DNA from: Escherichia phage RCIP0359
Sequence record: PV778520.1
DNA length: 59,541 bases
Reading direction: 5' to 3' (one strand)
Below the pieces are notes generated by a model. That model ran no database searches, had not been told where the DNA came from, and saw only the letters and a list, made by a program, of their open reading frames with translations. This document shows positions 44,363 through 44,739 of this stretch, in pieces (positions within the stretch are counted from its first letter, which is position 1; each line of letters opens with the position of its first letter). The translations under genes were made by a program, and so were the position numbers.

Positions 44363-44391
44363 ATTTTATATTGAAGTTCTGTTGATCTCAA
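44363..44391 (-). promoter_or_regulatory. sigma70-like promoter for resolvase-dUTPase operon
   Basis: minus strand TTGAGA - 17 nt - TAAAAT immediately downstream of terminator. Confidence 0.5.
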
Positions 44392-44426
44392 GGAACAAAA
44401 AAGCCCAGGCATAAGGATTCCTGGGC
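44391..44426 (-). terminator. intrinsic terminator
   Basis: minus strand GCCCAGG-10 nt loop-CCTGGGC followed by TTTTTTGTT. Confidence 0.6.
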
Positions 44427-44739
44427 TCTCTTGATTGTCGGATAGCTTACTTTGACTGCCGTCTTCGTCTATCCTGGCCTACTTGTACAGCCCCGCCAAA
44501 GGCTGGTGACGGTTTGGTACATCTGGCGCCGTCGCGTTAAACATCGTTCACATCGTTCAGTAAGTTGCGGGTTTACCCTGTCCGCTCCAGGAAGCCCAGC
44601 GAAAGTAGTTGCTGTAAGGAGGTACAGCTACCGCTTTCAAGGGCTTGAGTTAAGCATCGTTCACTAAGTTAATGTTGTTAAATTGTTAAACCTCGTTAAC
44701 TGTGGTTATCTTAAAGGATGCAGTCTTGAATGGCAAGCT

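Follow-up and report, generated by a model that had tools for sequence, protein, structure and literature searches.

A putative stand-alone gene for a structured noncoding RNA in the replication module of Seuratvirus phages

Between two genes of Escherichia phage RCIP0359 (record PV778520.1; 59,541 nucleotides, analyzed in full and hereafter called the window) lies a noncoding island that we consider here as a candidate RNA gene. The source genome is that of a Seuratvirus (Queuovirinae) coliphage and is complete or nearly so; the 501 bases around the island share 99.6% identity with Escherichia phage Skure (~99.5% across the island itself), and another 33 phage records also match. Along the minus strand, the genes run from a P4-alpha/D5-like primase-helicase (46148-48484) through several small genes and a gene for a protein of 104 amino acids (aa) to the island, and from there to a PDDEXK_15 nuclease and a dUTPase. 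The island thus sits in the replication module, with the primase-helicase on one side and the genes for the nuclease, dUTPase, RNase H, and ligase on the other. As the downstream gene starts at ATG 44322, the true intergenic gap is 44323-44739. In the GenBank records checked, the island is left blank or miscalled as small hypothetical proteins. A first-pass annotation of this DNA had described a stretch without a credible open reading frame (ORF), bearing direct repeats and ended by a terminator-promoter junction, and every element that it listed is present, some of them a few bases away from where they had been placed. The only long ORF encodes 71 aa on the plus strand (44452-44667, TTG start); although annotated in some records, it is not conserved, and frame-shifting indels disrupt it in Salmonella phage STP-SP5.

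The island has the boundaries of a transcription unit of its own (Table 1). A promoter-like site of the sigma70 type (TTGCCA-17-TAAGAT), missed by the first-pass annotation, starts four bases past the stop codon of the upstream gene, and relatives have corresponding sites with differing spacers, namely TTGACA-17-TAATAT in STP-SP5, TTGACA in ECP2304, and TTGCAA-17-TAAGAT in Hafnia phage yong3. At the other end, the proposed intrinsic terminator was recovered on the minus strand, although a consensus scan missed it because its loop is 10 nucleotides (nt) long. Terminator hairpins of -17.9 to -25.2 kcal/mol followed by U6 occur in three sequence versions, and yong3 has a fourth, a 13-bp hairpin with a U-tract. 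Four different terminator sequences (window type, STP-SP5, the allele of phages with an HNH insertion, and yong3) therefore occupy one position and each is trailed by a new promoter, from which it follows that the RNA unit would be insulated from the downstream operon in every lineage. The promoter adjoining the terminator in the window (TTGAGA-17-TAAAAT) was likewise confirmed, and the same kind of junction is seen in the HNH-variant allele and in yong3. Because the gap between the upstream gene and the island has no terminator, transcripts of the upstream operon must run into the island. The earlier view of the island as a long 3' tail of that operon is thus right insofar as read-through must enter it, but leaves out the conserved promoter that the island has for itself.

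Table 1. Features of the island and its flanks in the window
Feature	Coordinates	Strand	Basis or remark
Gene for 104-aa protein, upstream of the island	44740-45054	-	Gene map
Sigma70-type promoter of the RNA: -35 TTGCCA (44736-44731), 17-nt spacer, -10 TAAGAT (44713-44708)	44708..44736	-	Consensus scan
Predicted noncoding RNA transcript, ~305 nt; start near 44701 placed from the -10, 3' end in the U-tract	44396..44701	-	Promoter and terminator bounds
A/U-rich 5' region with repeated U(U/G)AAC motifs; tandem UUUAACAA UUUAACAA; dyad GUUAAC-GAGG-UUUAAC	44649..44700	-	Motif counts
P2: 21-bp interrupted hairpin, hexaloop CCUCCU (44622-44617) within ACCUCCUUA, identical to the 16S rRNA 3' end	44592..44646	-	Six compensatory pairs
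P3a: hairpin GCGG-ACAGG(G/A)UAAAC-CCGC	44567..44585	-	GCGG/CCGC to GUGG/CCAC in STP-SP5
Tandem 9-nt repeat UGAACGAUG, two copies, variable linker; third copy at 44663-44655	44542..44559	-	Repeat scan, alignments
Core hairpin P3c (GACGG / 16-nt loop CGCCAGAUGUACCAAA / CCGUC), then P3d (CAGCC / UUUGGCGR / GGCUG)	44488..44533	-	Most conserved block in every lineage
P4: two-part hairpin GGAUAGAC...GAC-GGCA-GUC...GU..CUAUCC	44440..44474	-	Five compensatory pairs
Intrinsic terminator of the RNA, also ending the upstream operon	44397..44430	-	GAGAGCCCAGG-loop-CCUGGGCUUUUUU, -21.9 kcal/mol, then U6
Promoter TTGAGA-17-TAAAAT, restarting transcription into the PDDEXK-nuclease and dUTPase genes	44363..44391	-	Consensus scan, 10/12 matches
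23-nt inverted repeat over the -10 of the TTGAGA promoter and the 5' untranslated region of the nuclease gene; neighbors the RNA gene, outside it	44332..44381		Repeat scan
PDDEXK_15 nuclease gene, annotated 'RusA-like'	43855-44322	-	True start ATG 44322

Compensated base pairing is evidence for a function at the RNA level on the minus strand. A model of local hairpins comprising 64 pairs was tested on 15 distinct sequences, and 98.2% of the cells of the modelled structure can pair. Changes on both sides with pairing kept were found at 12 of the 64 pairs, compared with 3.6 ± 1.4 in column shuffles (0/500) and with 1-3 when the partners were slid against each other. These compensatory pairs fall in P2 (six), P3a (one), and P4 (five), and yong3 adds two in the core, one per hairpin (C-G to G-C, and G-C to A-U with G-U in STP-SP5 as intermediate), which brings the total to 14. 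Single substitutions in Greed, KS_A3, SLUR25, ECP2304, and STP-SP5 yield G-U pairs on the minus strand, whereas on the plus strand they would give A-C mismatches, and the minus-strand versions of P2 and P4 are always more stable than their plus-strand equivalents. The GC content over 44396-44650 is 52.5%, against 44.6% for the genome. Compensation in P2 is seen mainly between the window and STP-SP5, with one pair in L005, while in P4 the both-side changes come from the diverged allele of the HNH-insertion phages VogelGryff, Dru_SM1, and SA126VB, and the single changes in SLUR25 and ECP2304 lead to G-U pairs. In that HNH-variant allele, the whole 3' domain has been replaced, about half of the positions matching (judged by eye) with the same fold. 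The CCUCCU loop of P2 is invariant in the E. coli and Salmonella lineages; yong3 has a shorter, different hairpin instead, and P3a is absent from it.

Between these variable hairpins lies the core, whose two loops, CGCCAGA(U/A)GUACCAAA and (U/C)UUGGCGR, are almost invariant, with yong3 differing by one base in each. The loops hold the complementary hexamers CGCCAG and UUGGCG, and a kissing loop or pseudoknot between P3c and P3d is therefore possible. What stays constant across the E. coli group, STP-SP5, the HNH-variant allele, and yong3 is a 5' part rich in U(U/G)AAC, the two-hairpin core, a hairpin between core and terminator, the promoter, and the terminator.

The second conserved property is a short motif rather than a fold. 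Counted across the whole RNA, U[UG]AAC occurs nine times in the window against 0.64 expected (0/1000 shuffles), five times in STP-SP5 against 0.70, and five times in yong3 against 0.58, an enrichment of 7- to 14-fold in three lineages (0-1 of 1000 shuffles each); the 5' part of yong3 cannot be aligned with the others and is nevertheless enriched. In the window, the stretch 44640-44729, which belongs to the transcribed 5' region, has a GC content of 32-33%. The repeats remarked upon in the first-pass annotation are real. The three copies of CATCGTTCA stand at 44542-44550, 44551-44559, and 44655-44663, with no other exact copy in the 59.5-kb window, for which our own calculation gives ~0.45 exact copies expected by chance. 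The four GTTAA copies were located at 44668-44699, and further ones at 44649 and 44536 bring the count to six in 170 nt, the highest density in the genome. They form part of a 16-nt unit, GTTAA-N6-TT(A/C)AC, present three times in the island and once elsewhere in the window; the units lie 36 and 113 bp apart, the shorter repeat spacing is 8-10 bp, and all motifs have the same orientation. The linker formed by the 9-nt repeats varies among isolates, with three tandem copies in Dru_SM1 and a cluster of substitutions in L005 and L067. One metagenome contig (ERZ1026901 NODE-154; L063 1146-1245) has a GC-rich insertion of ~100 nt exactly between the two 9-nt repeats, which holds a hairpin of its own (CCCGCAU...AUGCGGG) and a second GGAUAAAC.

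Conservation of the island exceeds that of both flanking genes. All 34 matching GenBank records carry it at 95-99.6% identity, save STP-SP5 at 78.6%. In STP-SP5, the upstream protein is only 43% identical, and conservation of the island is patchy, with identical blocks of 27 and 44 nt and differing stems between them; in slur01, the island is 98.3% and the upstream protein 58.7% identical. The metagenome contig L115 encodes an upstream protein of 52% and a nuclease of 62% identity; over window positions 45054-44313 (upstream gene plus island) it is 85% identical, and its match to the island profile is as strong as for close relatives. Across otherwise near-identical Seuratvirus genomes (SHIN8 and SLUR75 versus the window), the primase-helicase gene (46148-48484, minus strand) occurs as two alleles ~78% identical in protein, which mark strong mosaicism of the replication module. 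The island is 98-99% identical across these two alleles.

A more diverged homologue was reached through the neighboring PDDEXK protein, not by exact-pattern scans, in Hafnia phage yong3, which is also classified as a Seuratvirus (nhmmer E = 2.5e-17; 76 bits with a covariance model of the core). That core model detected a single copy per Seuratvirus locus searched but none in related phage loci. The element is single-copy and was seen in every Seuratvirus examined, with E. coli, Salmonella, and Hafnia as hosts. The first-pass annotation had held that absence from close relatives would speak against a function; within the genus no such absence was found, and the element is absent from the neighboring genera examined. 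Eight related contigs of ~60 kb or fragments thereof (L116, L119-L125) have no long noncoding gap upstream of the nuclease gene and match neither the island profile nor the core model, and the element is also absent from Pantoea phage Vid5 and from the Nipunavirus and the Nonagvirus examined. In Vid5, a tRNA-Ser occupies the syntenic spot, just upstream of the PDDEXK nuclease gene (L007 8569-8656). Apart from yong3, which came via the PDDEXK protein, pattern scans of IMG/VR, JGI metagenomes, and one genome per GTDB species, together with a protein-based locus scan of IMG/VR, nhmmer, and the core covariance model, returned only relatives at least 95% identical or chance matches inside ORFs (L086 Fluviicola, L117, L118). 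A blastn search of 5,426 E. coli genomes gave no match, in a database too large to reveal short mimicry. At this locus, the sequences recorded under Aeromonas phage SD04 and Cronobacter phage CSP1 share 99% identity with Seuratviruses of E. coli, and their host labels may need a second look.

The element corresponds to no family that we could find. A covariance-model scan against Rfam 15, which the first-pass annotation had suggested, returned zero gathering-score matches in the whole window, and at E ≤ 10 the segment 44300-44800 gave only chance-level matches to microRNAs and small RNAs (sRNAs) of 10-16 bits. ARAGORN reported no tRNA or tmRNA in the window, no tRNA-like fold was seen, no riboswitch family matched the island (preQ1 classes included), and the element is undescribed in the literature searched. 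Judged by sequence, the island combines a promoter of its own, an intrinsic terminator, and a compensated structure without a conserved ORF, as expected of an independent gene for a noncoding RNA (ncRNA), and we are fairly confident that it is a real RNA gene. The predicted RNA is a new family confined to one phage genus, within the known kind of phage-encoded ncRNAs. The earlier suggestion of a processed ncRNA is accordingly supported in its ncRNA part by the compensatory pairs, the G-U changes, and the varied terminators, but not in its description as a processed tail alone, given the promoter at the head of the island.

The reading that we favor on balance is that of a stand-alone gene for a structured ncRNA of ~305 nt, which may act by binding or titrating a host or phage factor. 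Host RNA polymerase would start at the sigma70-type promoter right after the upstream stop codon and would stop at the strong intrinsic terminator, with the separate promoter restarting transcription for the genes of the PDDEXK nuclease and the dUTPase; upstream-operon transcripts that read through would end at the same terminator and could add to the RNA pool. From 5' to 3', the transcript would consist of a weakly structured, A/U-rich part bearing U(U/G)AAC, the variable P2 and P3a, the repeat linker, the invariant hairpin pair, P4, and the terminator. We infer that such an RNA would act in trans as a stable scaffold or decoy, its U(U/G)AAC sites and hairpin core titrating a protein that may be a host RNA-binding factor, a sequence-specific RNase, or a phage protein. 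A short motif in many copies, a varying copy number, an invariant core, and a length of 300 nt would fit a sponge or scaffold better than a simple seed-type antisense RNA. Protein binding as the mechanism is nonetheless put forward tentatively. A narrower version, which we regard as speculative and rather unlikely, is that of a phage-made decoy, in which an abundant RNA soaks up a host factor through the U(U/G)AAC array and a kissing-hairpin core. Such a decoy could be aimed at a sequence-specific endoribonuclease or toxin of an abortive-infection system, or at a global RNA-binding protein (Hfq or S1, for example). An arms race would then have left its traces in the changing number of repeats and in the hairpin inserted in some isolates.

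Several observations weigh against the favored reading. The loop-loop pairing in the core never varies, hence there is no covariation that bears on it, and folding z-scores for the whole molecule are moderate (-2.8 for the window, -1.2 for STP-SP5, and -2.7 for yong3). Few independent lineages stand behind the compensation (STP-SP5, yong3, the HNH-variant allele, and L005), and relatedness can inflate shuffle statistics; the rare variants Greed, KS_A3, and slur01 break pairs at the base of P2. No partner is known for U(U/G)AAC, no RNA-binding domain was found among the neighboring proteins, and the literature yielded no Seuratvirus transcriptome.

Among the rival explanations, a function at the level of DNA would make the island an origin or an array of sites for the P4-alpha/D5-like primase-helicase or another DNA-binding protein, with the promoter supplying transcriptional activation or an RNA primer. 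The location inside the replication module, the three 16-bp dyad units that are nearly unique to the island, and an A/T-rich stretch (44650-44700, ~32% GC) into which the promoter fires would all suit such a role, and the first-pass annotation had proposed both a second origin and a protein-binding array. Neither proposal is supported. Judging from the compensatory and G-U-type changes, selection acts on a minus-strand RNA, and the transcript ends at a strong terminator; the units are irregularly spaced, run in one direction, and are not kept, only a short core of them surviving in STP-SP5 and yong3; and primase alleles 78% identical share the same island. In addition, an 850-bp noncoding island upstream of the primase operon (49200-50050), near the minimum of the cumulative GC skew, holds many more iteron-like repeats, being packed with direct repeats and with inverted ones (AAGTTTTG..., TGGAATAA..., and 22-28-nt inverted repeats), and is the better candidate for an origin or early control region. 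Because of the RNA-strand selection, the irregular and unconserved units, the lack of tracking with primase alleles, and this better candidate, we consider a DNA-level element improbable. The repeats do not fit the regularly phased, conserved direct repeats of about 17-22 bp that mark an iteron-type origin, the third unit being lost in STP-SP5 and the repeats of yong3 being different ones. Equally improbable is a long structured 3' untranslated region with a terminator that insulates two operons, its folds merely guarding the upstream mRNA from 3' exonucleases and the RNA having no function of its own. In its favor, operon transcripts must enter the island, and relatives keep the junction of terminator and promoter. 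For such a role, however, a terminator hairpin would be enough, and it would account neither for 45 nt of loops and stems that are nearly unchanged across hosts nor for the enriched short motif, nor for a promoter kept in three lineages, and the island is better conserved than the gene that it would protect.

The remaining rivals accept an RNA and differ in how it would work. A trans-acting riboregulator could pair with mRNAs through the CCUCCU hexaloop of P2, a mimic of the anti-Shine-Dalgarno sequence that would occlude strong Shine-Dalgarno sites, or could use the 16-nt loop of P3c as its seed; either would shut off or retune translation during infection. In favor of such a regulator, the six pair changes in the P2 stem leave its loop untouched throughout the E. 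coli and Salmonella lineages, ACCTCCTTA occurs only twice in the window, and 10 nt of the P2 loop region could base-pair with the DNA ligase ribosome-binding site (UGUAAGGAGG, 41006-41018); the terminator with its U-tail also resembles an Hfq-type 3' module. The likeness to 16S rRNA extends to ACCUCCUUAC, which matches the 16S end plus the first base of the spacer, but the CCUCCU loop is missing in yong3, so that it was rejected as a universal functional site, and the 10-mer common to the 16S 3' end is not significant alone (49/300 shuffles). Complementarity to the phage genome amounts to chance 12-mers at most, no conserved segment pairs appreciably with 16S, 23S, or 5S rRNA or with the rrn leader or spacer, and a molecule of 305 nt with multiple conserved hairpins exceeds the usual length of a simple seed-type sRNA; altogether, we think a riboregulator of this kind unlikely, although in the E. 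coli and Salmonella lineages the P2 loop may serve as a base-pairing site. Least credible to us is a cis-regulatory leader of the PDDEXK-nuclease/dUTPase operon, that is, a riboswitch or attenuator of its own terminator or an antitermination site of the nut/boxA type, even though promoter, structured RNA, terminator, and genes follow each other in the classic layout of a leader. The terminator could face competition from an alternative pairing of 14 nt in the window (44599-44586 with 44434-44421), yet this pairing falls from 12/14 to 9/14 in STP-SP5 (by our reading of the alignment), where the changes are compensated within P2 and not in the anti-terminator partner; the attenuator model fails for this reason. 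A strong promoter directly past the terminator in all lineages, the lack of a match to any riboswitch family, and the retention of the RNA by phages with HNH or extra ORFs after the terminator speak against a leader as well. As for antitermination, the UUUAACAAUUUA(A/U)CA of the 5' region matches the boxA region of the E. coli rrn leader (1/300 shuffles against the leader alone), as in rrnB, but the match is marginal over the whole rRNA region (21/300 shuffles), and the GCUC half of the rrn/lambda boxA (the NusB-NusE site, core (Y)GCUCUU(U)A) is absent, being replaced by GAGG in the window or GAGU in STP-SP5. A boxA/nut site or rRNA-operon mimic was consequently rejected, only the 3' half UUUAACAA being present and no boxB-like pentaloop hairpin accompanying it of the kind that lambdoid nut sites have a few nt downstream. 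These rRNA-operon resemblances are short and marginally above chance, and we treat them as leads only.

Further identities were tried and set aside. A mimic of a CRISPR repeat was rejected since the E. coli type I-E repeat has only the 9-mer GGAUAAACC in common with the RNA, and this 9-mer is polymorphic, the window having GGGUAAACC. A functional tie to either neighbor is unlikely because the 104-aa protein is missing from the yong3 locus examined, and because the nuclease occurs without the RNA and diverges independently.

The closest parallels to the favored reading, an RNA that binds or titrates a factor, are architectural. CsrB/CsrC, RsmY/RsmZ, and CrcZ are protein-sponge RNAs with multiple sites, several hundred nt long, each having its own promoter and intrinsic terminator, and their motifs are GGA or AANAANAA. 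Like them, the Seuratvirus RNA appears as a stand-alone unit with many copies of a short motif along the molecule, in numbers that vary among relatives; unlike them, it is phage-encoded and its motif is U(U/G)AAC, so the likeness would be one of function and architecture only. A GGA sponge of the CsrB/RsmZ type, in which hairpin loops present many GGA, was rejected, our count giving only four GGA in 305 nt, and the invariant two-hairpin core has no known counterpart in RNAs of the CsrB/RsmZ/CrcZ type. Phage sRNAs covered in a recent review (PMC12197685) include lambda OOP, P22 sar, P1/P7 C4, P4 CI, DicF, StxS, and AgvB/AsxR; most of its examples originate in temperate phages or prophages, and sizes of ~74-125 nt are among those tabulated. 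Those RNAs and the one described here are alike in being phage-borne noncoding transcription units, whereas the Seuratvirus RNA is ~305 nt long, has multiple domains, and belongs to a virulent siphovirus. Phage sRNAs of these kinds act by antisense pairing; for the Seuratvirus RNA, no obvious antisense target was found in the phage genome.

Virulent phages also make stable RNAs, as exemplified by the T4 'band C/D' species 1 and 2 RNAs, which are encoded beside tRNA genes. The RNA predicted here resembles these as a structured, stable-looking RNA among early or middle genes of a lytic coliphage, but has no sequence or Rfam relationship to them and no tRNA-like fold. The order of promoter, repeat-bearing RNA, intrinsic terminator, and protein gene, with a repeat number that varies between phage isolates, recalls the type III ToxIN loci and the 'pseudo-ToxI' decoys of phages, in which repeat units of 34-45 nt are combined with a ToxN/AbiQ/CptN-type RNase. 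In contrast, the repeats of the Seuratvirus RNA are 9 nt long (2-3 copies) and accompanied by 5-nt motifs, and the downstream gene encodes a PDDEXK_15 nuclease that many relatives have without the RNA and that shows no co-evolution with it. An antitoxin RNA of a type III toxin-antitoxin system (ToxI-like) was therefore rejected on the basis of the repeats and the downstream gene.

Some features flank the RNA gene without being part of it. The slot just past the RNA terminator is an insertion hot spot (L002 861-1373, L003 861-1373, L085, and L050; L001 1190-1492; L084 294-596; L115 3011-3493), in which several phages have an HNH homing endonuclease and others an ORF of 100 aa; all of these phages retain the RNA. 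The HNH insert goes together with the strongly diverged allele of P4, terminator, and promoter, which looks like co-conversion or immunity to the endonuclease's own cleavage. The inverted repeat at 44332-44381 changes at its outer positions from C..G to G..C in STP-SP5; an operator is one possibility, a hairpin formed solely during read-through another. Farther away, a lone 74-aa gene on the plus strand (45897-46121, phrog_22269), with a weak, sub-threshold match to an AP2 domain, interrupts the replication cluster of the minus strand immediately downstream of the primase gene. On the other side of the island, two adjacent ORFs of 140 aa and 123 aa (41946-42736, minus strand) are the halves of one 263-aa gene (phrog_27666) that is intact in Skure and is split here by a 1-nt deletion near 42324, which could be a frameshift, a pseudogene, or a sequencing error.

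Members of Seuratvirus are included in the BASEL collection and grow on E. coli K-12, which makes the RNA directly testable. Even if titration should prove untrue, the annotation of the locus is corrected and a new RNA family with a clear structural core is defined. If the RNA does titrate a host factor or a defense nuclease, a mechanism of takeover or counter-defense based on RNA would be added to those of virulent coliphages, and under the decoy version this would be a device for counter-defense or host takeover without a relative among described RNA families.

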